From Tolypothrix carrinoi HA7290-LM1 (GTDB lineage: Bacteria > Cyanobacteriota > Cyanobacteriia > Cyanobacteriales > Nostocaceae), in NCBI GenBank assembly GCA_019358935.1, contig JAHHIK010000107.1, forward strand, positions 1 through 27,834: a stretch of DNA of 27,834 nt, read 5' to 3'. Under the pieces are notes generated by a model. It was not told where the DNA came from, searched no databases, and saw only the letters and a list, made by a program, of their open reading frames with translations. The position numbers and the translations under genes are program-made. Shown here one piece after another: positions 14,075 through 27,834 of this stretch; positions within the stretch are counted from its first letter, which is position 1, and each line of letters starts with the position of its first letter.

Positions 14075-15022
14075 CTAAGTCAACGCCTGGGCGCCGCCAA
14101 CAACCTCTAGAATTTCTTGGGTAATTGCGGCTTGGCGGGCTTTGTTATATGACAAAGAAAGAGATTTAATCAATTCGCCGGCGTTGTCGCTGGCGTTGTT
14201 CATTGCTGTCATCCGTGCGGCTAGTTCGCTGGCGGCTGATTCTTGCAGCGCCCGCAATAGCTGGTTACTCAGATACAATGGCAATAGAGAATCGAGAATC
14301 TGCACTGGATCTTGTTCAAAAAGCATGTCGCGGGGAAAAGCGCGAACTGGGGTAGTGACTTTCTCGCGTTGCACTTCAAATTGACCGCCACGAGTTGTCA
14401 GGCGGAAAATTTCGTCGTCACCTGCTTCTAAACCTTGAACGTCAAAAGGAAGCAAAGTTTGCACGACTGGGCGAGAACTAACCAGAGAGATGAACCTGGT
14501 GTAGACTAGCTCTACGCGGTCTACGCTTTCTGAAAGGAACAAAGAAAGCAGTTGATCGGCAATTTGATTTGCCTCAGATGCGACAGGAATTTGCTCTAAG
14601 CCTGTGTAAGTTGCATCAATCGGCTGTTCTCGGCGTTGGAAGTACTGAATGGCTTTGCGTCCTACCAGTACAAATTTGTAGTTTACGCCTTCTGCTTTCA
14701 GTTCCTTGGCGCGATTTTCGGCACGACGAATGACGTTAGTGTTGTAGCCACCACACAAACCCCGATCGCCTGAAATTACCAACAAACCGACAGACTTCAC
14801 ATCCCGTTTTTTCAGAAGTGGTAAATTTGCTTCTTCAAACCGCAAGCGAGTTTGTAAGCCATACAAAACTTGTGCCAAGCGATCGGCAAAGGGACGGGTC
14901 GCAATTACTTGTTCTTGAGCGCGACGCACTCTCGCTGCTGCTACCAGTCGCATCGCTTCTGTAATTTTTTGGGTATTTTTGACCGACTGAATGCGATCGC
15001 GTATTGCTTTGAGATTAGCCAT
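14075..15022 (-). CDS. atpG: F1 ATP synthase gamma subunit (cyanobacterial atpC)
   Basis: [26 protein letters not shown]; last gene of the operon. Confidence 0.98.
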
Positions 15023-15028
15023 AATCTG

Positions 15029-15162
15029 ATTGGTAATTGCTAATTGCTAATTGGTAATTGGTAATTGGGTAAAAGGCAATTGGGCATTGCTCATGAGGGG
15101 AAAAGGGGAAAATTTTTATTCCATTACCCATTACCCATTACCCATTACCCATTACCCATTAC
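15029..15162. repeat. STRR heptamers (GGTAATT / CCATTAC) between alpha and gamma genes
   Basis: Two roughly complementary tandem arrays. Confidence 0.85.
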
Positions 15163-16683
15163 CTAAACGGTAGCCAAGAATGTTTTCTTGTATTCGGTAA
15201 GTGCTTCTTTCAAAGCAGTTTCCTCAGCGTCGCCTAGTACTTTCTGACTTTGTACTGCTTGGCTGTATTGAGGTTTGCTGCTCTTTAAGTATTCCCGCAG
15301 ACCTTTGGTGAAGGAAGTAACTTTATTGACGGGAATTTCATCCAAGTAGCCGTTAATACCAGCGTATAGAATTGCTACTTGCTCGTATACCGATAGGGGT
15401 TCGTTTTGCGACTGCTTCAAAAGTTCGCGCAAGCGCTGACCCCGCGCTAACTGGTCTTGGGTGGTTTTATCTAAGTCAGAAGCAAATTGCGCGAAGGCTT
15501 GTAAGTCGTCAAACTGCGCCAATTCCAACTTGATTTTACCAGCAACTTTTTTCATTGCCTTGGTTTGAGCGGCAGAACCTACACGGGATACAGAAATACC
15601 GGGGTTTACAGCCGGACGGATACCTGAGTTAAACAAGTCGGAGGAAAGGAATATCTGACCGTCGGTAATCGAAATTACGTTGGTGGGGATGTAAGCAGAT
15701 ACGTCACCAGCTTGGGTTTCGATGATTGGTAGAGCGGTCATGCTGCCTTTACCTAATTCATCGCTGAGTTTAGCGGCTCTTTCCAACAAGCGGGAGTGGA
15801 TGTAGAATACGTCTCCAGGATACGCTTCGCGTCCGGGTGGACGACGCAGCAGCAAGGACATTTGGCGATAAGCTTGAGCCTGCTTGGACAAGTCATCGTA
15901 AATTACTAGGGTAGCTTTGCCTTTGTACATGAAGTACTCAGCCATTGTTGCCCCAGTGTAAGGAGCCAAGTATTGTAGTGTTGCTGGTTCACTGGCGCTG
16001 GCGGCAACAACTATGGTATAATCCATTGCGCCTTTTTCTTGCAATGTTTGCACCACGTTGGCAACGGTGGAAGCTTTTTGACCGATCGCTACATAAACAC
16101 AAATTACATCTTCCTCTTTTTGGTTGATGATTGTGTCGATCGCGATCGCAGTTTTTCCGGTTTGGCGATCGCCAATAATTAATTCGCGCTGACCCCGACC
16201 GATGGGAATCATCGAATCAATCGCGGTGATACCGGTTTGCATCGGTTCGTGTACGGAACGACGCGCAATAATACCGGGTGCGGGAGATTCAATCAAGCGA
16301 GTTTCTGTAGTTTTGATTTCTCCTTTACCATCAATCGGACGACCTAAAGCATCAATAACTCGTCCAACCATCGCATCACCCACCGGCACCTGAGCAATTC
16401 TGCCAGTAGCGGTAACGGAGCTACCTTCTTGAATATTACGACCTTCACCCATCAACACCGCGCCCACGTTATCTTCTTCCAGGTTTTGGGCGATGCCGAT
16501 TGTACCATCTTCAAATTCTAATAGTTCCCCAGCCATAGCCTTTTCTAGACCATAGATCCGGGCAATACCGTCACCTACTTGCAGGACGGTACCAACGTTA
16601 GCAACTTTGACATCTTGGTCGTATTGCTCGATTTGTCTCTGAATAATGCTGCTGATTTCGTCAGGTCTGATGTTAATAGCCAT
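15163..16683 (-). CDS. atpA: F1 ATP synthase alpha subunit
   Basis: GDRQTGKT P-loop, [19 protein letters not shown]. Confidence 0.99.
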
Positions 16684-16714
16684 GTGTCTATCTTTATTTG
16701 GGAGACTGAGGAAG

Positions 16715-16812
16715 TAGTTAGTGGTTATTTGTTAGTGGTTATTTGTTAGTGGTTAGTAGTTATTATGATTCTTTCAACTAACAACGCTCCAACTAACAAC
16801 CAACAACCAACA
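16715..16812. repeat. Short tandem/inverted repeats (GTTAGTG/GTTATTT vs AACTAAC/AACCAAC) between delta and alpha genes
   Basis: Read directly from the sequence. Confidence 0.7.
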
Positions 16813-16817
16813 CTTTA

Positions 16818-17372
16818 TTAAGAGCCACTTAAGCGTAAGGAAAGACGGCGTAACTGACTCCGCAAACTGGCGTCAATTACTTGAGAGCCAACTTTGATGA
16901 TGACACCACCAATCAAGTCACGGTCTATTTTTGTTTCTAGATCGACTTGACGAGCGTTGGTCATAGCGATGACTTTTTCTCGTATTGCTTGTTCTTGCTC
17001 TTGAGAGAGGGGAACGGCTGAGGTTATTTCTGCTAAGACAGTTTGATTTTTCTGTCTGAGAAGCGCTATATACTGTTCGCAAATTGGTTCTAGCAACAAA
17101 ATGCGCCGTCTATCTACCAACAGCATCAAGAAATTACGGAAGTTTGAGTTAATGCTTTGACCAATGACTTCGTTGATGACTGCCTTTTTTTTGTCTGGCT
17201 CAATAAAGGGGTTGCCGACAAAGCTCTGCAATTCTGGAGAATTTTGCAATAAATTCAGCAAAGAACGTACATCTTCGCCGAATTCTTCTGTCTGGTTTTT
17301 TGACTCGGCTACTGACATTAATGCCTGTGCATAAGGCTGGGCGATTTCGGCTATTGCTATGTCGCTTTTCAT
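16818..17372 (-). CDS. atpH: F1 ATP synthase delta subunit (cyanobacterial atpD)
   Basis: AQPYAQAL, LIGGVIIKVGSQVIDAS; operon position. Confidence 0.97.
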   Translation of the reverse strand: MKSDIAIAEIAQPYAQALMSVAESKNQTEEFGEDVRSLLNLLQNSPELQSFVGNPFIEPDKKKAVINEVIGQSINSNFRNFLMLLVDRRRILLLEPICEQYIALLRQKNQTVLAEITSAVPLSQEQEQAIREKVIAMTNARQVDLETKIDRDLIGGVIIKVGSQVIDASLRSQLRRLSLRLSGS

Positions 17373-17374
17373 AC

Positions 17375-17935
17375 CTAGCCTCCCACCTGCGCGATGCTGC
17401 GGTCAATTAATGTTTGTTGAACGTCGTCGGCAATGCCACTTTGCAAATTAGATTCGACTTTTTGCAATGCTAGGGCAGCTACTCTTTGTCGCAGTTCGGC
17501 GATCGCTCGATCTCTTTCTGTATTTAAATCAGCTGCGGCTGTTTGTTTCAAGCGTTCTACGTCTTGCGCTGCCTTTGCCAATGTTGCTTCTCGCGCAGAT
17601 GCCGCATTTTCTTCGGCTGCTTTGCGGATGCGTTGTGCTTCTGCTTGCGCTTGAGTTAACTGTTCTTGCGCTTTGGAAAGGGCAATTTGTGCCTCTTTTA
17701 AACGCGCTTCCGCTCCCTGAATTTCGGTTTCAATATTTATCCGCCGTTCATTCAGGATGTTGGTTAAAACTTTACGTCCAAAGTAAAATAGTATGCCAAT
17801 TAGAAGCGCTAAGTTAATCAGATTGGTTTCTAATATGTCTAAGTTTAGACCGAAACCACCTTCGCCTTCTGCCATTTCTGAGTGATGAACAGCGGCTTCT
17901 GCGGCAAGTAATATGAAAGTCCCCATGTTAGCCAT
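17375..17935 (-). CDS. atpF: Fo ATP synthase subunit b
   Basis: [15 protein letters not shown] followed by TM segment and coiled coil. Confidence 0.96.
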
Positions 17936-18086
17936 TTACACGCTCGCGCTCGCTTGCTGATTAATTTGAACTTTACCGATGAGAAAAAGTGTTTTTCGAC
18001 ACTTAATTAAGCGCCCTTCAAGACTTTCGTTAAGATGCGCGTATACTTTCAACAGAACCAATGTTATAATCTGTGAAGATATTACT

Positions 18087-18521
18087 CTATCTAACCAGAC
18101 TTGTTGGTCCTAATAGTTTTTCTAGAATCTGCCTGCTCAGGGCATCAACTTGTTGTTCTAAGGATTGCATAGCTTCTTGCTTTTGCTGCTCGATTTCCAC
18201 AGATGCTTCTTCGCGTTGAGCTTGAGCTTCTTTTTGCGCTTGGGCAATTTTCTCTGCGGTAATTTTCTTAGCTTCGGCTTGAGCTGCTTCTACAGTAGCT
18301 TGCGATTGTCTGCGGGCATCGGCTAGCTGCTGTTCATATTCTTTAGTTAAGCGCTCGGCTTTTGCCAAGCGTTCGCCAGCTTCAAGGTTATTCGTCCGGA
18401 TATAATTATCGCGATCGTCTAATACCTTGGTCAGTGGCTTGTAGAAAATTGCATTCAACAAAGCTGCTAACAGCAAAAATTGCAATGCCATCAAGGGCAA
18501 GGTAGCATCGAAATCAAACAT
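18087..18521 (-). CDS. atpF2: Fo ATP synthase subunit b' (cyanobacterial atpG)
   Basis: [17 protein letters not shown] plus coiled coil; AGGAGAG RBS. Confidence 0.95.
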
Positions 18522-18654
18522 TTCTCTCCTATGCAGGTTGGAATAGCACTATTTCATGGCTAGCTAATTCATCCAACCTTTAATATTCTATAGACCCCAT
18601 AGCCAACCAGGGTCAACTTACATCAAAACGACTATCCGAAAGCTAGATGTCAGT

Positions 18655-18712
18655 TGTAGAGACGGTTGGATGTGTCGCAGCACAAACTGCCTAAATCGTT
18701 CGCGTCTCTACA
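18655..18712. repeat. TGTAGAGACG...CGTCTCTACA stem-loop just downstream of the subunit c gene
   Basis: Perfect 10-bp inverted repeat with a 38-nt loop region. Confidence 0.7.
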
Positions 18713-18729
18713 CTAACAATTTTTAGGTC

Positions 18730-19059
<330 letters not shown>

Positions 19060-19821
19060 TTAATGCTCCTCATGTCCTTCATCACCGTGACCAGCTATTG
19101 CCTCGTGAATGTATGCTCCTGCTAAGGTAGCAAATACCAGGGCTTGAATGGCACTGGTAAATAGACCTAAAGCCATAACGGGCAAAGGTATAAACAGAGG
19201 AACCAATAGAACTAGCACACCTACTACCAATTCATCCGCCAAAATATTACCAAATAGACGGAAGCTTAGGGAGAGAGGCTTGGTGAAGTCTTCGAGAATA
19301 GCGATCGGCAATAAAATCGGTGTCGGCTCTATATACTTCTTAAAGTAGCCTAAACCCCGTTTGCTAAATCCGGCGTAAAAATACGCTAAAGAAGTTAGCA
19401 ACGCCAATGCGACAGTCGTATTGATATCATTTGTCGGTGCTGCCAATTCACCCGAAGGCAGTTTGATTAACTTCCAGGGAATTAAAGCACCCGACCAATT
19501 CGACACGAAGATAAACAAAAATAGTGTGCCAATAAACGGCACCCAAGGACGGTAGTCTTTCTCACCAAGTTGGTTTTTTGCCAAGTCCCGAATAAATTCT
19601 AGGGCATATTCCATCAAATTTTGGATGCCTTTAGGAATTCTCTTGGCGTTGGTAGTAGCAGCGATGGAAGCTATGGCGAGAATGCCAATCACAAACCATG
19701 AGGTGAGAAAAACTTGCCCGTGTATTTTCAGATTGCCCAATTGCCAGTAGAGGTGATGACCTACTTCCAATTTGGCGAGGGGAAAAGAATTAAAGGCGTT
19801 TGAGACACTAAGCATGTGCAT
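19060..19821 (-). CDS. atpB: Fo ATP synthase subunit a (cyanobacterial atpI)
   Basis: [26 protein letters not shown]. Confidence 0.98.
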
Positions 19822-19881
19822 TCTTCAAGATTTTTCCCCAAAAAGCGAGGATTGGAGATATTGTCTTTGTGAGCCTGACTT

Positions 19882-20325
19882 TTAAGAATCAGGAATAAAC
19901 GCAGTTTGCACTGTATAGACGATGAGCGTGGCTTTGTAAGTGAGGAATCCCAAGAATATTGGCAGGACGTGTAAATCGCGCCATTGAGTCGCAACTACCA
20001 TCAAACCAATAAACAGAGCAAAACGGTCTTTGCTCAAACTTTTTTTTTCGCTACCTAGCCGCTCAACGTCTCTAGCCAGCAATTTTAAGTAAACCACACC
20101 CGCACACGCCCCTATCAAATAATTCAGGGCAATGTTTAGGGAATAAAAAATCCACACTGAGATAAAAATAATCCCGGTCAACACGAGTGTGATTTTCAAC
20201 AACTTCTGAAAGAGTTGATAAAACTCTTCCATAGAAGAGGTGGCTGGTTTTGTATCCTCAAAACCAGGTTGAGCATCTTGTCGTGTTGTCGGCGTGGGGT
20301 TAATCGATTCGTCTGACAAGCTCAC
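19882..20325 (-). CDS. atpI: ATP synthase protein I (Atp1)
   Basis: First gene of the operon; 4 TMs; LGFLTYKA motif of cyanobacterial Atp1. Confidence 0.92.
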
Positions 20326-20679: not shown

Positions 20680-21033
20680 TTATTCACCGATTCCTTCTTG
20701 CGCCATCAAGTCTTGTAATTGCAGCACTAACGAGGGAAGGTTATTATCGATGGTGTTCCAGACAATCTTCAAAGTAACTTGGAAGTATTCGTGAGCCATG
20801 ACGTTTCTCATGTCACCCATTACACGCCAGGGAATATCTGGGTAACGAGACTGAATTTCTCAGGGGATGTTAATTGCAGCTTCACCAATAATCAAAAAGT
20901 CGTAGCAAACAGCTTTGGCAATTGTGGAATTGCTTTTGAATTGCTCAAATGTTATGCCATCTGTACGCTGCTTAATCTCAGTAGCTGATATCACAATATC
21001 TTGAATCCGCTGCCGCCAATCTCTAGAAGGCAC
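20680..21033 (-). pseudogene. HepT-like (DUF86/HEPN) RNase toxin with premature stop at codon 58
   Basis: GTG 21033: MPSRDWRQRIQDI...IIGEAAINIP*EIQSRYPDIPW...MRNVMAHEYF...IGE*. R-x4-H motif present; internal TGA at 20862-20860. Overlaps the antitoxin 3' end; absent from the ORF track. Confidence 0.9.
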
Positions 21034-21319
21034 GAATCACATCCTTTAAAACTGGTTGTTGTAAATGTTCCTTCAAAGCATCCAGAGTCCCCATGTCCAC
21101 AGAACGCCCCAAAATATCTTCTAAATACAGTCGCACGCGGCTAAAGTCAAACAGTCCCACTGGACGGCTAAACTCTACCAAAAAATCTACATCACTATCT
21201 GGTCGAGCCTCATCCCGCGCTACTGAACCAAACAAATCTAAAGACCTCACCCCCATTTCTTTCAACTGCTCTTGGTGTGCTTGTACAATTGCCAGAACCT
21301 CATCCCGCTTCATTGTCAT
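21023..21319 (-). CDS. Minimal nucleotidyltransferase (MNT/MntA-type) antitoxin
   Basis: LFGSVARDEARPDSDVDFLV (GS-x10-DxD), 98 aa, directly upstream of a HEPN gene. Confidence 0.92.
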   Translation of the reverse strand: MTMKRDEVLAIVQAHQEQLKEMGVRSLDLFGSVARDEARPDSDVDFLVEFSRPVGLFDFSRVRLYLEDILGRSVDMGTLDALKEHLQQPVLKDVIRAF

Positions 21320-22738: not shown

Positions 22739-23269
22739 TTAAAGGTCACATTGATGCGTTTGGCAATATTTGGCGTTTTTGATTTCGCTTTGCAAATTAT
22801 TCAAAGAAATTATCTGCAAATTAGTCCCATTCTGAACCGCAGCAGTGATGTAAGCGAATTTTTGCCCGCGAGAAAACGTGTCTCTACCGACTTTGGCGAC
22901 AGAACGAGAATTACGAAAGTCGTTAGCAATTTCCGAATTATAAATATTTTGCAGCAGTTTTACGCCCTTAGCATTATTAGTGGTAAATTTTATGCTGGGG
23001 TCATCGCTGACTGTTATTCCTTCTTTGGTTACAGTCCCGTTTTGGGAAGTAGTATTTACATAAAAGTATAAATTACCGTTGCGACCTTCGTAACCATGCG
23101 CTTCGCTGTTATATTTCAGCGCTGATAGTTGAGGTCTGGTTTTTGCCCAGTTGAGGACGGTGTTAATATTTTGTCCTGGTAGTGCGTTTGCAGGGGCAAC
23201 AGTTAAGGCGATCGCACAAACGGATAAAGCAGCGGTAGATAATAAGTTAAATTTATTACAAGCAGACAT
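22739..23269 (-). CDS. Secreted hypothetical protein
   Basis: Signal peptide ending PANA-LPGQ; 176 aa; C-terminal Cys pair. Confidence 0.8.
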   Translation of the reverse strand: MSACNKFNLLSTAALSVCAIALTVAPANALPGQNINTVLNWAKTRPQLSALKYNSEAHGYEGRNGNLYFYVNTTSQNGTVTKEGITVSDDPSIKFTTNNAKGVKLLQNIYNSEIANDFRNSRSVAKVGRDTFSRGQKFAYITAAVQNGTNLQIISLNNLQSEIKNAKYCQTHQCDL

Positions 23270-23307
23270 CGGTTTTCTCTGTATGGTAGATAAGAATTAT
23301 AGTTTAG

Positions 23308-23342
23308 GCGTAGACGCGGAGCGGCTTGTCGTCAGACATCGC
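23308..23342. repeat. 27-bp small dispersed repeat splitting a HIP1 site (GCG|insert|ATCGC)
   Basis: Removing 23311-23337 restores GCGATCGC. Confidence 0.65.
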
Positions 23343-23432
23343 GCTTTTTTCGGTTAGTGGTTGGCGATTGTCCGTCATGAAAGGCTACGCGATCGCACAA
23401 TTAATTTTAGGAACGAGAATTAAATAATATGC

Positions 23433-23505
23433 AACCTCACCCCTAACCCCTCTCCTTAATAAGGAGAGGGGAGGCTTTGACAATAGTCAAAGACGGGGTG
23501 AGGTT
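23433..23505. repeat. Branched palindromic intergenic repeat
   Basis: AACCTCACCCC...GGGGTGAGGTT outer stem; inner CCCCTCTCCTTA/TAAGGAGAGGGG and CTTTGAC/GTCAAAG stems. Confidence 0.85.
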
Positions 23506-23549
23506 TTACGCTTTATTAAATCGATCTTGCTGACTAATATTTTGATATT

Positions 23550-23693
23550 TCAGGGTTGTACAACAGATATGTTCTGTGTCAACCTGAAGGCAAGATTTGT
23601 GTTTGGTTTTGGTAAGCCATCAGCGGTGTTCGCCCACATCAAGGCTAGAGTGAACAAAGCAGCATGTAATAGTAAGTAAAATTTATTACGCAT
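23550..23693 (-). CDS. Possible 47-aa exported peptide
   Basis: MRNKFYLLLHAALFTLALMWANTADG looks like a signal peptide; no recognisable homolog. Confidence 0.35.
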   Translation of the reverse strand: MRNKFYLLLHAALFTLALMWANTADGLPKPNTNLAFRLTQNISVVQP

Positions 23694-24346
23694 AAATATA
23701 AGTTTTTTATAAGTGAACGTTGATAAATACAGCTTCACTCTCTTCTATTTCGCAATCAGCCTGGAAATTTATTTTTGGGCGATCGCCGTTTGCGTTGCCT
23801 CAATAAAGCTGCAAAATATCAATCATTTTTTTGCGAGTATCAAAAATGCTGTCCAAGTCCACGCGCCAAAATCTTTCACCACACGACGCGATAAAGGGAG
23901 ACTAAAAAGTATCAGGTAATTAAGTTAGGACGCTTAGGTAGCGTTTCAGGACTTTTCAATTAAATAAAGTCTCAGTTGCGTGACTAAGGGCTGTCGAGGG
24001 TTGGCAGTGGGTAAGTTCTAAAACTTTTATATATATATGTATTCTTTCCACAGGTACTGAAAACTTGCTTTGTGAAACTTTATCATAACAATACAAAAAA
24101 CCCGGAATTGTTAAGAGATTTAATTTTTAAAATTACTACTTAGGCTTATATCTATATTTCTTCTTATAAAATTTAAATTTTACAGCACTTTTGTTTAGAT
24201 TAACTTTATAAAAACTTGAGTATGATTTTAGTCAATAACTATTGAAAATTACCTAGACCTTGTGATGGATGCATAAGTTTTAAATCCAAAATTTTGCTAG
24301 GAAAAAATTAGAGATAGTTACAACACTATTTTTATAAGTTAGACTC

Positions 24347-25738
24347 ATGCGCTCAAAAACAAAGAAATCTGTATCTAGATTAGTAGGAATTTGGACGTTT
24401 CTTTTACTTTTTATATTTAAAGGGATTTTTCCTAAACCTGCTTATGCATTCTTGTCATCCCTAGACGCTTGCGCTGCTAACCCTGAATGCGCTGCTGCTA
24501 TAAGTTCTGAAGTAGCCCCTGCTGTTTCTGCTCCTACAGGTGCTGGGTTTGGTGCTTCAACTCTTAGCACTACTACTGCTGCTGGGGCTACTACTTCTTC
24601 TGTGCAAGGTGTTGCGGAAATTTCTGTTGCTGCGAGGCTTGGTACTTTAGGAATTTTATACTATTGGAATCAGTCTCAAAATCATTTGGCTCAGGAAAAG
24701 GCTAGAAAGAAATATTGCCAAGCTAATTCTCAGGATGAAGTCTGTGTTGGTAGCTCGTCAATGGGAATTTCTTATAAGTACAAAACAAACTCGACTGGTT
24801 ATCTGACCGATGCTGTGGTTGTCAGTAGTTGCTTGCCACCACCGCTAGCTTTTACTTTTACAGGTCAAGCTTTAGGGGTTACTGATAGTTCTGGTTATTT
24901 TCAAATTCTTGATGGTATTTGGAATGGTTACACACTAATTTCTCATAGTGAAGTTACTACGGTTTGTACTATTCGGAATCTACCGTGGAAAGATTGGTCT
25001 CAAGAAAAGCGTGATGAAGCAGTTAGATTACTAAATGATTCTGACTGGCAAGGTTTGATTAATTCAATGCCAGAAGCCGGGGTATTAAATCCTGGAGATA
25101 AGATTAATGCTCCGACAATTGTAATACCAGGGGAAGAGACTGACGACCCTAATACACCAGCAGATGAGCGTTTATTGAGGAAGGAACACGGATTCTTTAA
25201 TTTTCCTGGAAATCCTGACTTTGATAAAGATGGCATACCTGACGCATCTGACATAGATGATGATAACGACGGAACACCAGATTCTTCTGACCCACAGCCG
25301 CAAAATTCTTCTGTTCCGACAGCAAGCGGTGGTTCACCTAATCCTGGAGATTCAGGAGAAGAAGTTACTCCTGAAGTCCTTCAAGACATTCGTGATATTG
25401 TAAATCGTCATCCAAATGAAAGGTGTGTTGAATGTGCTAATGAAATTGAGGATTACTTGAGAGAGCAAAACATTCGTGGAAGACGTATCAAACTTGACAC
25501 ACCAAGACAAACAGGAGCTGATGACTTCATTATGGATGATAGTCTTCCACCGACAGCAGATGCTATTGCAACTAATGGTCATCATGAAGGAATTGCGATT
25601 AGGATAAATGGAGAAGAGAGGGTTTTTGACAACCACCATCCTGATGGAGTTCCAACAGAAGAATGGAAAGAAAATCTTGTATTTGATAGTAAAATCCGTT
25701 TCGGAGCAAGTTTTATAGAAAAAGAGTACTTATTCTAG
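24347..25738 (+). CDS. Putative secreted polymorphic toxin with C-terminal papain-fold toxin (Tox-PL-2-like) domain
   Basis: Signal peptide (PAYA-F), Ala/Thr/Gly-rich N-region, DFDKDGIPD..D.DDDNDG.PD Ca-binding-like repeat. Tip has CVECA...NGHHEG...VFDN..P.G...EEW. Followed by immunity-type genes. Confidence 0.78.
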   Translation: MRSKTKKSVSRLVGIWTFLLLFIFKGIFPKPAYAFLSSLDACAANPECAAAISSEVAPAVSAPTGAGFGASTLSTTTAAGATTSSVQGVAEISVAARLGTLGILYYWNQSQNHLAQEKARKKYCQANSQDEVCVGSSSMGISYKYKTNSTGYLTDAVVVSSCLPPPLAFTFTGQALGVTDSSGYFQILDGIWNGYTLISHSEVTTVCTIRNLPWKDWSQEKRDEAVRLLNDSDWQGLINSMPEAGVLNPGDKINAPTIVIPGEETDDPNTPADERLLRKEHGFFNFPGNPDFDKDGIPDASDIDDDNDGTPDSSDPQPQNSSVPTASGGSPNPGDSGEEVTPEVLQDIRDIVNRHPNERCVECANEIEDYLREQNIRGRRIKLDTPRQTGADDFIMDDSLPPTADAIATNGHHEGIAIRINGEERVFDNHHPDGVPTEEWKENLVFDSKIRFGASFIEKEYLF

Positions 25739-25788
25739 ACATAAAAGATATTTCATAAACATTCTTTCTTTAAGTGTAGGTAATCAAT

Positions 25789-26481
25789 ATGAACAATCTC
25801 TCTAGACTTATCCAAGATATTAAAGAAAACCCAGTTACGTATTTAGACAAGCCATCAATTACTTGTCTTCATTTATTCTTAAATGGGTATCTAGATACTC
25901 GAATGGATTTGGGATTGGATCGAGAAGGCTCTGGAATTAAAGGATTTCAAAAGTGGATAGAAGAAAGGGCAAAAACTACAGTGTCTCAATCATGGTCTGG
26001 AATAATTCTCTTTATCAGTGGGAGTGAGAGAAATGCCTTCTCTAAATTTTTTGAACTATTTGATGAGTTTTTAAATCAGAACAAAAGTTCAAAAAATGAG
26101 GAAAATAAAAAAAAAATGAACTCGACTATAAATGATTTTCAGCCCAGCCCACGCGCTCTCTACGAGCTTATAGGTGGTATCAAGAAAAGACCAGGGATGT
26201 ACTTAGGTACTTGCTCAATTACTAGACTTGATATGCTTTTAAGAGGATATACTCTGGCTCGAAGAGAAGTTTGTTTAGCTCCGACTGAAGAGGAAAAAGA
26301 ATTTGAGGGTTTTCAATCTTGGATTCAAGAAAAATATGAAATGAATTCAAATCAATGTTGGGCGAAAATAATTCTTTTTTTCTCTATAGATGAGCATGAA
26401 GCCTTAGAAAGGTTTTTTGAACTCTATGAAGAATATAAAAATCGTCACCAGAGTTCAGAAGTTGATGAAAATGATGGTTAA
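25789..26481 (+). CDS. Putative immunity protein 1 (two tandem copies of a ~100-aa domain)
   Basis: Halves share IK..P..YL...SIT.L...L.GY...GFQ.WI.E...Q.W..IILF.S..E..A...FFEL; lies 50 bp after the toxin. Confidence 0.7.
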   Translation: MNNLSRLIQDIKENPVTYLDKPSITCLHLFLNGYLDTRMDLGLDREGSGIKGFQKWIEERAKTTVSQSWSGIILFISGSERNAFSKFFELFDEFLNQNKSSKNEENKKKMNSTINDFQPSPRALYELIGGIKKRPGMYLGTCSITRLDMLLRGYTLARREVCLAPTEEEKEFEGFQSWIQEKYEMNSNQCWAKIILFFSIDEHEALERFFELYEEYKNRHQSSEVDENDG

Positions 26482-26608
26482 GCAGTGAACATCGTATTTT
26501 TGTAAAGGTGTAATCTTTAGTGCGAGCATCTTGCTGGCTACATCTTATATCCAAGCAAGATACTCGTATTACCTAATGTCAAATTGAGATGCTACCGAGG
26601 TAATAAAT

Positions 26609-27310
26609 ATGAGTAATTTCTCTAGACTTATCCAAGATATTAAAGATAACCCAGCTACATATTTAGATAAACCATCCGTTACTTGTCTTCATTCATTCTT
26701 GGTTGGGTATCTGGGCACTCTAAATGATTTGGGATTTACTTATGAAGGTTCCGCAATGAAAGGATTTCAAGAGTGGATACAAGAAAGAGCAAAAACTACA
26801 GTATCTCAATCATGGGCTGGGATAATTCTCTTTGAAAGTGGCAGTGAGAGAAGTGCTTTTAATTGGTTTTTTAAAGACTTTGAAAGGTTTTTGAACGAAA
26901 AAGAGAAAGCAGAAAATGAAAAAAATGAAGTGGAAAAAATTATTGAATCTAATGTAGATGATTTTAATTACCGCATAAATTCCGATTTATACGAACTTCT
27001 TGGACGGATGAAAAAGAGACCAGGTATGTACTTGGGTGATAACTCAATTACTAGGCTTGATATGTATTTAAGGGGATACACACAGGCTCGAACAGAAGTT
27101 GGTTTAGATCCCACTGACGAGGAAATAGAATTTGAAGGGTTTCAGAAATGGGTTCAAGAAAAATATGAAATTAAATCAAATCAATCTTGGGCGAAAATAA
27201 TTCTCTTCTTCTCTATGGATGAGCATGAAGCCTTAGAAAGATTTTTTGAACTGTATGAAGAATACCAAAATCAAAACAAAAGTTTTGAAGTTCAAAAAAA
27301 TATTGGTTAA
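26609..27310 (+). CDS. Putative immunity protein 2, paralog of 25789-26481
   Basis: About 70% identical by hand count over the first 97 aa; shares the AGGTAAT.AATATG leader. Confidence 0.7.
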   Translation: MSNFSRLIQDIKDNPATYLDKPSVTCLHSFLVGYLGTLNDLGFTYEGSAMKGFQEWIQERAKTTVSQSWAGIILFESGSERSAFNWFFKDFERFLNEKEKAENEKNEVEKIIESNVDDFNYRINSDLYELLGRMKKRPGMYLGDNSITRLDMYLRGYTQARTEVGLDPTDEEIEFEGFQKWVQEKYEIKSNQSWAKIILFFSMDEHEALERFFELYEEYQNQNKSFEVQKNIG

Positions 27311-27324
27311 GCAAAAAGCATTTG

Positions 27325-27717
27325 ATGACAGCATTTTCAGCAGAAACAAGAACATTGCTACAGCAGGCTGGATGGAGCGAAGATCGTTGTGTGGATACAA
27401 GCGAATACGAGAAAAGCTTGAAGTTAGAAGGTTATCCCCTTTATGAGATTGTATTGGATTTTTTGAAACGTTTTGGGGGTTTGCGAGTAGTATATCCACA
27501 CTACCGCGTCAAAAACGAAAAAGACGAATTCTACATCAATCCGACTGTTGCTGCTGCACACATCTATCCAGAAAGGGTTGAAGAGTATAGTGAACGGGTA
27601 AGTGCCCCGCTCTGCGTAATCGGTGAGGCTTTCAGCTATCACATGACTGTCGTAATGGCTCCAGATGGTAAAGTATACGCAGGCTATGACGACACGCTGA
27701 TTCATGTTGGGGAGTAA
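27325..27717 (+). CDS. SUKH-3 family immunity protein, probably 3'-truncated
   Basis: L.QAGWSEDR.VD, FLKRFGGL, F.INP, LCVIGEA, DGKVYA motifs. Confidence 0.8.
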   Translation: MTAFSAETRTLLQQAGWSEDRCVDTSEYEKSLKLEGYPLYEIVLDFLKRFGGLRVVYPHYRVKNEKDEFYINPTVAAAHIYPERVEEYSERVSAPLCVIGEAFSYHMTVVMAPDGKVYAGYDDTLIHVGE

Positions 27718-27834
27718 TCTAAACGCCATAGACCGTAACAAGTCGTAGCAATACGGACTCCCCCAGACCACTCCTTAAGCAAGAGTAGCTGTTATCTCTA
27801 AGCGTTAAAGTTCGTACCTTGGGGTGTCGAGCAG
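27709..27834 (+). ncRNA. 5' part of a probable HEARO/omegaRNA scaffold (IscB/IsrB-type IS200/IS605 element); runs off the window
   Basis: Stem GGGGAGT (27709-27715) / ACTCCCC (27757-27763) immediately followed by CAGAC, then a short ACTC/GAGT hairpin, then GTTAT...AAGCGTTAAAGTTCGTACCTTGGGGTG. This order resembles HEARO RNAs as I recall them. Confidence 0.6.

Follow-up and report, generated by a model that had tools for sequence, protein, structure and literature searches.

How a secreted protein that ends in a toxin-like domain might reach the cytoplasm of another cell is the question raised by the end of contig JAHHIK010000107.1 of Tolypothrix carrinoi HA7290-LM1; the window analyzed here is the whole of this contig (27,834 nt). 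The original prediction had read this region as a Sec-exported polymorphic toxin with an immunity array, carried on an undescribed delivery scaffold, and four same-strand ORFs (463, 230, 233, and 131 aa) were recovered where it had placed them (Table 1). All four genes had also been called AT-rich, which holds for the two paralogues behind the toxin gene (34% and 33% GC) but not for the toxin gene (40.7%) or the SUKH-3 gene (44.4%; genome, 42.3%). The region of the upstream spacer is kept in a congener (89.5% identity over 22901-24717). Promoter, terminator, LexA, and NtcA scans found no regulatory motif in this spacer, and an Rfam scan gave no result. The sole RNA run contributed two 150-bp pieces at the locus and nothing more.

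Table 1. Features of the toxin-immunity locus, in positions of the window.
Feature	Position	Strand	Remarks
AT-rich spacer upstream of toxin gene	23270..24346	.	1.08 kb
Toxin gene, 463 aa	24347..25738	+	signal peptide, pIII-like scaffold, acidic linker, Tox-PL-2 tip
Predicted Sec signal peptide, aa1-34	24347..24448	+	basic n-region, hydrophobic core, A-x-A site 32-34
Conserved scaffold segment A, aa35-133	24449..24745	+	C42/C48, Ala/Thr-rich stretch, helix ending C124...C133
Hypervariable beta-rich middle domain, aa134-211	24746..24979	+	63-139 aa in homologues
Conserved scaffold segment B, aa212-288	24980..25210	+	W214, R222, A225 helix pair, then Pro/Asp-rich stretch
Acidic TSP3-like repeats and Pro/Ser/Gly linker, aa289-335	25211..25351	+	TSP_3 sub-threshold; tip junction directly after
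Tox-PL-2 papain-fold tip	25352..25738	+	C360, N410-x-x-H413, D428-N429
Cognate immunity protein 1, probable Imm73	25789..26481	+	all-alpha, two repeats in tandem; lacks a signal peptide
Immunity paralogue 2	26609..27310	+	68% identical to immunity protein 1
Orphan SUKH-3 immunity gene	27325..27717 (ORF 27322..27717)	+	cut after about codon 129 by inserted element
End of multi-copy mobile element	about 27709..27834	.	7 contig ends in this genome carry it; depth about 13 times that of the locus

By hydropathy, the predicted signal peptide is the sole strongly hydrophobic stretch of the toxin protein, and A32 and A34 are nearly invariant among homologues. At the other end, Tox-PL-2 (PF15643) matched aa343-444 (Pfam E = 8.6e-36; 122.7 bits against a cut-off of 25), in agreement with the Cys/His/Asp papain-fold tip (C360/H413/D428) that had been proposed; C360, N410-H413, and D428-N429 were invariant or nearly so across 31 aligned rows. 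The Tox-PL-2 motif (C, NxxH, DN) is defined in PMC3482391, which already catalogues a Sec-exported Tox-PL-2/Imm73 pair for cyanobacteria. A sequence search with the tip against the PDB gave no result. RHS, CdiA, LXG/WXG, PAAR, and Hint signatures, which had been reported as lacking, were indeed absent, as were MafB and MuF marker domains, in Pfam, NCBIfam, and PHROGs scans of the toxin protein; no longer fused form of the protein was found, a negative that carries little weight.

Both genes behind the toxin gene encode a tandem of two repeats and are paralogues, as had been noticed. The model of immunity protein 1 is all-helical with two repeats, fitting the description of Imm73 (all-alpha, tandem copies, beside Tox-PL-2 in cyanobacteria); the table of PMC3482391 gives, for cyanobacteria, an Imm73 partner that is all-alpha and present in tandem copies. 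The two all-helical paralogues are probably Imm73; by sequence, the repeat-type genes had no Pfam or NCBIfam match and their homologues are unnamed, and fold searches with the immunity model gave a best Z of 4.9, representing a common helical arrangement. In a docking model, immunity protein 1 is placed over the tip's catalytic Cys/His (ipSAE 0.82 versus 0.01 for the best of three controls; 116 of 157 solved pairs but just 2 of 215 mismatched pairs attained the ipSAE mark), with at least 92% of contacts in agreement among runs and a partner pLDDT of at least 83. A repeat-type immunity gene was the first gene after each of 13 Tox-PL-2 tips and after none of 13 other tips; paralogue 2 probably guards against another Tox-PL-2 allele. 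The third gene was confirmed as a member of the SUKH-3 family (Pfam E = 1.8e-21) but is not intact, its last ~27 codons having been removed by the multi-copy element; the remainder was not found in the assembly, which contains no contigs <10 kb. Because the window is an entire contig, the immunity array may extend past the inserted element. The SUKH-3 gene was considered as the cognate immunity gene and rejected; in a congener, its orthologue directly follows a YwqJ-deaminase tip (YwqJ-SUKH-3 pairs at loci L002 and L018), and the repeat-type gene pairs with Tox-PL-2. Reciprocal orphans are present in genome G008, which has two repeat-type immunity genes downstream, for tips that it lacks.

The scaffold between signal peptide and tip had no match in Pfam or NCBIfam, except for the sub-threshold TSP3 repeat, and an ESM Atlas search gave no result; its structure model was poor (pLDDT 52), and a fold search with this low-confidence model likewise gave no result. 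A homologue search with the N-terminal region, which the original prediction had recommended, recovered about 20 tip types (54 proteins fell into 23 crude tip clusters), with the gene immediately downstream changing according to the tip type. Tox-PL-2 was present on 33 of the 56 first-search matches; tips with Pfam names comprised Tox-PL-2, YwqJ deaminase, EndoU, RNAse_A_bac, CdiA_C, Ntox33, and DUF6972. The middle domain is exchanged as a cassette, independently of the tip, and is a candidate receptor-binding domain; in an independent DNA run, a contig joins 24682 to 24985 with 290 different letters between them. Given these interchangeable C-terminal toxins, the cognate downstream immunity gene, and the orphan immunity genes, the locus is very probably a polymorphic toxin-immunity system. 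It is very improbable that the protein is an effector aimed at a host or grazer, or a secreted peptidase without toxicity, and that the genes beside it have no immunity role; although Tox-PL-2 also occurs in secretory systems that parasitic bacteria aim at host cells (PMC10318531), and papain-like domains can be processing peptidases (PMC3482391), the tip here is terminal, can be exchanged for nucleases or deaminases, and is coupled to a cytoplasmic protein that the docking model places on its active site, and a standalone tip-immunity pair is present elsewhere in the same genome. The alternative tips include nucleases and deaminases, toxins that require the cytoplasm.

The claim of an undescribed scaffold held insofar as no known trafficking family was matched, but the origin of the scaffold had been missed: we conclude with high confidence that the scaffold and the pIII-like attachment protein of cyanobacterial inoviruses are homologues. 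A profile of nine context-verified inovirus pIII-like proteins scored 42.6 bits on aa35-288 (hhalign probability 96.6-97.2%), and with its N-terminal part the toxin gene ranked first of the 11,472 ORFs in its genome (E = 6e-11; next, 0.42), scoring 38.6 versus 9.4 for 500 shuffles; the match survived all nine leave-one-out runs (37-49 bits). In the reverse direction, a profile built only from toxins scored anchor-ended proteins up to 122 bits, the best of 54 decoys reaching 3.4. Reciprocal homology was computed without the signal peptide or the acidic repeats, and an artefact of signal peptide, acidic repeats, or Ala/Thr bias was ruled out by masked profiles, shuffles, and the genome-wide ranking. 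On single context-verified pIII proteins the toxin-only profile was weak (L047, 15.7 bits; L046 and L048, negative; L076, no match), and L089 fell below the threshold used. Segment A is common to the toxin and inovirus pIII-like proteins and segment B to the toxin and anchor-ended pIII-like proteins, and the profile of the latter covers only positions 4-346 of 426 in the comparison with the toxin, from which a C-terminal hydrophobic helix (i.e., a membrane anchor) is absent. One middle-domain family is also present both in a toxin and in the pIII of an inovirus (34% over 109 aa, E = 3e-8). As judged by sequence, a toxin tip occupies the place of the C-terminal virion anchor; the protein is not itself a pIII, although it presumably derives from one.

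The pIII role of the cyanobacterial proteins was assigned from gene position and architecture; the gene is flanked by the major coat gene on one side and the pVI/Zot genes on the other, on contigs of 5.6-8.9 kb that carry Rep, small membrane genes, coat, pIII-like, pVI-like, and Zot genes, and one such contig (7,087 bp) has a terminal repeat. The anchor-ended proteins closest to the toxin (P0095, P0104, P0108, and P0122) are known by their contig sizes (3.1-8.1 kb) only. Ff g3p gave no sequence or fold match to the scaffold or the pIII-like profile, that profile matched PDB sequences by acidic repeats only, and annotated phage and plasmid collections gave no match; viral-contig scans with P0056 and with the window scaffold, and a genome-contig scan with alignment A4, gave no result. 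A prophage remnant in place was rejected; the toxin gene sits in the chromosome with no coat, pVI, Zot, or Rep gene beside it and is surrounded by ATP synthase, a methyltransferase-like gene, and a gene for a small secreted protein. The toxin might also ride on filamentous virions or virion-like particles supplied by a helper phage, which we regard as highly unlikely; four genomes carry inovirus prophages whose pIII consists of signal peptide and anchor only (107-141 aa), which complements the scaffold exactly, and Ralstonia inoviruses carry T6SS toxin clusters (PMC11481896), yet the toxin has no anchor, which assembly needs, and Zot, the inovirus assembly ATPase, was absent from the source genome, from every toxin locus read, and from all 64 scaffold-matching genomes among the 389 family genomes searched.

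In an unrooted tree of 154 columns, in part Ala/Thr-rich and computed under a simple model, the toxin label needs at least five changes and a single toxin clade was rejected (AU p = 3.3e-5). That the toxins are not one clade points to repeated capture; we infer the direction to be from phage to toxin. This bears on the reading of the locus as a conventional polymorphic toxin that is exported by Sec and whose N-terminus is specific to its lineage (MafB-like logic), for which pIII homology would be ancestry only and delivery would occur by vesicles, contact, or shared periplasm. Such a toxin would fit PMC3482391, where N-terminal domains that follow a signal peptide vary by lineage and Tox-PL-2 is assigned to the Sec route, as well as the marked divergence of the main toxin group from verified pIII and the absence of Pfam TolA from the source genome; however, three further toxin groups adjoin different pIII lineages in the tree, and repeated capture and continued exchange of middle domains with phages would be more readily explained if selection acted on the entry function, and we consider this reading unlikely.

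An intact full-length gene was found in 12 genomes, most family matches being broken or shortened. A close profile detected the gene in 2 of 401 genomes in a phylum-wide sample and the pIII-like profile detected toxin forms in further families belonging to the same order; the range is therefore patchy and query-dependent. A tipless form of 240-270 aa with the same end point occurs in about 30 Nostoc-type genomes, with an immunity gene behind it in five of six read, and would fit a decoy in a self-acting anti-phage or addiction module, where a periplasmic pIII-like decoy or sensor would lead the tip to kill or arrest the infected cell or filament segment. The phage-derived scaffold, the rarity of inoviruses in the family (Zot in 2 of 389 genomes), and the failure to find an export route beyond Sec or across the producer's outer membrane are consistent with such a module. 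It is nevertheless decidedly unlikely, as orphan immunity arrays such as those of the window and G008 are expected of attack from outside rather than of a suicide module, and the tip would need to return from the periplasm to the cytoplasm.

We therefore propose, as the probable explanation, a bacteriocin-like polymorphic toxin directed against related cyanobacteria, with a domesticated inovirus pIII-like attachment protein as its carrier. Phage g3p is Sec-exported, has a C-terminal anchor, and binds the pilus and then TolA (PMC8310372), and the Tol route is common to colicins and phages (PMC7391070). In the source genome, MotA/TolQ/ExbB genes and a secretin are present but Pfam TolA is not. 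The toxin would be exported by Sec as pIII is and, having no anchor, would be soluble in the periplasm, leaving the producer perhaps by lysis, vesicles, or the secretin. The middle domain would bind a surface receptor specific to the strain, probably an outer-membrane protein or a pilus, whereas segments A and B would engage the periplasmic or inner-membrane step used by the phage; entry into the target by the phage's route is somewhat favored. The tip would then get to the cytoplasm and act as a thiol peptidase or transglutaminase, and the cytoplasmic immunity array would protect kin. More broadly, the chances seem evenly balanced that the module with which filamentous phages infect was captured repeatedly by cyanobacteria and joined to toxins, giving natural phage-tip bacteriocins with two independent dials (the middle domain for the target strain and the tip for the killing chemistry), and that this module, which would also serve a third, unclassified small-prophage group, may be a general envelope-crossing key.

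Literature searches found no description of a toxin with a pIII-like scaffold. Classifications of polymorphic toxins go by the route of delivery, and the filamentous-phage attachment protein is not among the routes listed in two surveys, PMC3482391 and bioRxiv 10.1101/2021.10.19.465003, the latter having found few polymorphic toxins in cyanobacteria. Our results suggest that a protein with which viruses enter cells became, in cyanobacteria, a weapon directed at relatives; if so, this adds a delivery route, and the toxins might provide soluble probes for the receptors of cyanobacterial inoviruses, known here from sequence alone, and possibly a protein-import tag for cyanobacteria. Flores and Wolk reportedly described, in 1986, protein bacteriocin activity among filamentous nitrogen-fixing cyanobacteria, for which pIII-like toxins could, by conjecture, be a candidate class.

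Among known systems, the Sec/T2SS polymorphic toxins of Zhang et al. 2012 (PMC3482391, available part) have the same signal peptide, variable tip, adjacent immunity gene, and orphan array, as well as the Tox-PL-2 motif and the all-alpha, tandem-copy cyanobacterial partner; the N-terminal domains named there for the Sec class are MafB-N, MicroscillaN, APD1/2, and an inactive transglutaminase, a pIII-like one not being named, and the window toxin differs in having no RHS or Hint parts and an extra second polymorphic domain in its middle. Neisseria MafB, as described in the same paper, shares the signal peptide, a lineage-specific N-terminus, and variable tip/immunity cassettes. The window toxin, in contrast, has no MafB-domain match (Pfam, NCBIfam) and no MafA-like gene upstream. 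MuF polymorphic toxins of temperate phages and tailocins are alike in using a phage structural protein as toxin carrier and depend on a tailed-phage particle, whereas here a single protein of filamentous phages would act with no virion genes around it. For the MuF toxin, packaging in the phage head is predicted (PMC3482391). Like inovirus pIII/g3p, the window toxin starts with a signal peptide and includes a variable domain in its N-terminal module and a low-complexity linker, with a toxin in place of the C-terminal Cys-containing domain and membrane anchor; its scaffold has no detectable similarity to Ff N1/N2 but significant homology to the cyanobacterial versions. Group A colicins show the same combination of receptor-binding/translocation module, cytotoxic tip, and immunity gene; they lack a signal peptide and leave by lysis. 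An f1 g3p-colicin E3 hybrid was reportedly engineered by Jakes, Davis and Zinder in 1988; the window toxin shares its design and would be a natural, repeatedly evolved cyanobacterial counterpart.

The four genes that the original prediction placed at 24347..27717 lie at those positions (table): the first encodes a 463-aa protein that begins with a signal-peptide-like stretch and ends, as proposed, in a papain-fold Tox-PL domain (Tox-PL-2, 122.7 bits; cut-off 25), and it is followed by two paralogues (68% mutual identity), each made of two copies of one repeat, and by a gene matching the SUKH-3 family. AT-richness, claimed for all four genes, holds for the two paralogues and not for the toxin and SUKH-3 genes. 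After about codon 129, SUKH-3 is cut by an element that includes the window's final 126 bases and is present at seven contig ends of this genome (G000), at ~13x the depth of the locus in the probable source sequencing run; this stretch had no Rfam match, and the element body is absent from the assembly. Both a congener and an independent sequencing run show SUKH-3 uninterrupted at this point. The window corresponds to contig C107 of G000. The divergent secreted-protein gene is conserved at the same site in the congener G008; in another congener, G006, nothing of the toxin gene beyond its initial ~35 codons is left, and these lie at a different site.

Coordinates of features in the window and in related loci
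Feature	Location	Strand	Remark
Toxin gene	window 24347-25738
Immunity protein 1 gene	window 25789-26481		repeat type
Paralogue 2 gene	window 26609-27310		repeat type
SUKH-3 gene	window 27325-27717
Mobile-element end, multi-copy	window 27709-27834		begins with run of G; copies identical
ATP synthase operon	window 14075-20325		label from sequence reading
Small nucleotidyltransferase-like antitoxin gene	window 21023-21319		label from sequence reading
176-aa secreted protein	window 22739-23269		divergent from toxin gene; no family match; label from sequence reading
Toxin gene remnant, G006	L003:1489-1647
Standalone Tox-PL-2 gene (134 aa), then single-repeat immunity gene (146 aa)	G000 contig C59:29024-29911	minus
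Mini-pIII genes, 107-141 aa	L079:7676-8089, L099:2602-3027, L088:7561-7944, L087:2421-2744		inovirus prophages
467-490-aa genes	L087:6005-7477, L088:10019-11422		two cyanobacterial inovirus prophages
Third-class loci	L084:5843-11187, L037:779-8403, L085:105-5888		small prophage-like gene clusters
Third-class proteins	P0153, P0156, P0160, P0184, P0192, P0194

The N-terminus had been proposed as a query for varied tips with matching downstream genes, and a search with aa 30-335 of the toxin found both. Tox-PL-2 ends 33 of the 56 homologues, the named ones all being from Nostocales; when the final 125 residues were crudely clustered, 54 proteins taken from the search homologues, profile matches and genome loci gave 23 tip clusters (one or two probably over-split). 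Alternative tips include YwqJ deaminase, EndoU, RNAse_A_bac, CdiA_C, Ntox33 and DUF6972 above the Pfam cut-off, and Tox-REase-5, OTT_1508 and peptidase C39 below it. Counting each locus once, and only loci with a tip, a repeat-type gene is first downstream in 13/13 distinct Tox-PL-2 loci versus 0/13 loci with other tips; this is very probably a real polymorphic toxin-immunity locus. At the same insertion site, G008 carries a YwqJ tip directly followed by a SUKH-3 gene 93% identical to the window's, with two repeat-type genes farther downstream, which makes the window's SUKH-3 an orphan immunity gene, probably retained for protection from the tip of a neighbour.

The repeat protein is modelled as all-alpha (pLDDT 81), which fits the Imm73 entry in the table of PMC3482391, described in the portion available as all-alpha, partnered with Tox-PL-2 in cyanobacteria and at times in tandem. 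A complex model of the tip with immunity protein 1 scored 0.82 versus 0.01 for the best of three controls, with contacts agreeing at least 92% between runs and a partner pLDDT of at least 83; the mark for this score was attained by 116/157 solved pairs versus 2/215 mismatched pairs, a benchmark only roughly applicable because the alignments were custom-made. The modelled interface takes in C360 and N410-H413 of the tip, which supports binding of immunity protein 1 over these residues.

The match pattern of a tipless form (240-270 aa) was seen in ~30 genomes, almost all belonging to a single genus; its fixed site is flanked by genes read from sequence as PD-(D/E)XK-like and transglutaminase-like. 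In the six loci read (L020, L022, L024, L029, L032, L036) it stops where conserved segment B of the scaffold starts, and an immunity gene lies directly behind it in five; such strains are candidates for being disarmed but immune, or the form for being a secreted decoy. The Tox-PL-2/immunity pair on contig C59 has neither scaffold nor signal peptide and is a candidate toxin-antitoxin-like pair or tip donor.

The weakest match of the first search, P0056, has the N-terminus in common with the toxin, but its C-terminal end is a Cys-containing domain followed by a hydrophobic helix; a profile search yielded more such anchor-ended proteins, 16 of which were aligned. The conserved anchor motif led to four viral contigs (5.6-8.9 kb) and nine metagenome loci, some representing the same phage. 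On contigs of sufficient length, the gene order is small membrane genes, a coat-like gene, the anchor-ended gene, a pVI-like gene and the Zot ATPase, and a rolling-circle Rep is also encoded; one contig (L089; 7,087 bp, terminal repeat) carries a full inovirus gene set. By position and architecture, the anchor-ended proteins are thus putatively assigned as inovirus pIII; PHROGs gave only unknown-function or weak matches to them, and solved g3p structures gave none to the pIII-like proteins.

Homology between the scaffold and these proteins was tested on sequences stripped of the signal peptide, the acidic repeats and the tip. A toxin-only profile detected 17 anchor-type proteins at 18-122 bits (best decoy 3.4); on proteins verified by phage gene context it was weak (L047, 15.7 bits; L046 and L048 negative; L076 none). 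A profile of nine context-verified inovirus proteins matched aa 35-288 at 42.6 bits (hhalign probability 96.6-97.2%), and its N-terminal part ranked the toxin gene first among 11,472 G000 ORFs (E 6e-11; next 0.42), scored 38.6 versus 9.4 in 500 shuffles and kept the match in 9/9 leave-one-out runs. The anchor motif had retrieved eight of the nine and the anchor-ended profile the other; both were built on proteins first met via the toxin profile, so that independence is good but incomplete. Positions 4-346 of the 426 in the anchor-ended profile align with the toxin, i.e., all except the anchor; the scaffold structure model was of too low quality for use.

A tree was built from 61 of the 66 aligned rows (154 columns, LG+G4; P0178, P0190, L046, L048 and L092, lacking the segment-B pattern, dropped). 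In it, the toxin label changes at least five times, toxins form one clade in 0/200 bootstrap trees, and the AU test rejects a single clade (p 3.3e-5), suggesting that toxins captured the pIII module repeatedly. Starred branches place the L075 toxin beside the L089 phage protein, two EndoU toxins beside L047, and the P0120/P0191 toxins beside P0122; the window toxin falls within a group of 32 toxins with a weakly supported base. P0168 was entered as anchor-type although its end looks pVI-like. As the tree is unrooted, derivation of the toxin carrier from a filamentous-phage attachment protein is the simpler reading. Among 389 genomes of the family, the scaffold profile matches 64, some few of them through the tip alone, with an intact full-length gene in 12, and toxin forms extend to further families of the order; a cyanobacterial Zot profile matches two of the 389, neither a carrier, and no Zot was found in G000 or in any toxin locus read.

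Several further arrangements were seen. Mini-pIII proteins, in four cyanobacterial genomes (G094, G012, G682, G482), consist of signal peptide and anchor domain and lack the N-terminal module, which makes them exactly complementary to the toxin scaffold; the filaments of their phages may be non-infectious or carry a different tip. Two of these prophages also carry 467-490-aa genes, whose start may resemble a filamentous-haemagglutinin secretion domain. On one 14.7-kb metagenome contig (L092/L093), an inovirus genome is followed in tandem by a near-identical second one, the two differing in Rep allele. A third protein class has the same module, no signal peptide, a long coiled-coil-like C-terminus and weak tape-measure matches; one cluster lies beside an integrase, and for a neighbour the ESM Atlas shows a resemblance to AcrVA2-like viral clusters (a lead only). 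The role of this class may be that of an entry or pilot protein in an unclassified cyanophage.

The middle domain that separates the two conserved segments is 63-139 aa long and comprises many families. The window's own had no match among 95 middle domains; one family is common to a toxin and the L048 inovirus pIII (34% over 109 aa) and also occurs in the third class. In an independent DNA run, one contig matches both flanks, with 290 other letters replacing 24683-24984. Since the exchangeable N-terminal part of M13 g3p is the receptor-binding domain (PMC12477597, excerpt), the middle domain is a natural candidate for target choice.

The phage protein g3p is exported by Sec, anchored C-terminally and binds the pilus and then TolA (PMC8310372), the Tol route is common to colicins and filamentous phages (PMC7391070), and the Tox-PL-2 tip may act as a thiol peptidase or transglutaminase (PMC10318531). 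Because the immunity proteins lack a signal peptide and nucleic acids are the target of many alternative tips, the toxin tip would have to reach the cytoplasm. G000 has ExbB/TolQ-type genes and a secretin, and no Pfam match to TolA.

The scaffold had been put forward as undescribed, and the accessible full texts hold no account of pIII-derived polymorphic toxins or of this cyanobacterial family, most subscription papers lying outside that coverage. In the portions available, the main text of an inovirus survey (PMC6813254) does not contain 'cyanobacteria' and reports toxin-antitoxin pairs alone, a 2022 toxin survey lists anchors without a pIII-like domain, and Ralstonia inoviruses with T6SS toxin clusters (PMC11481896) differ in arrangement; some of these proteins may be entered, as a signal peptide with Tox-PL-2, in the supplement of PMC3482391. 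What appears new is the carrier, together with its origin; the tip, the class of immunity protein and the type of system have been described before. An engineered g3p-colicin E3 hybrid (Jakes, 1988), reportedly altered in receptor specificity, has the same design as the anchorless pIII plus toxin proposed here.
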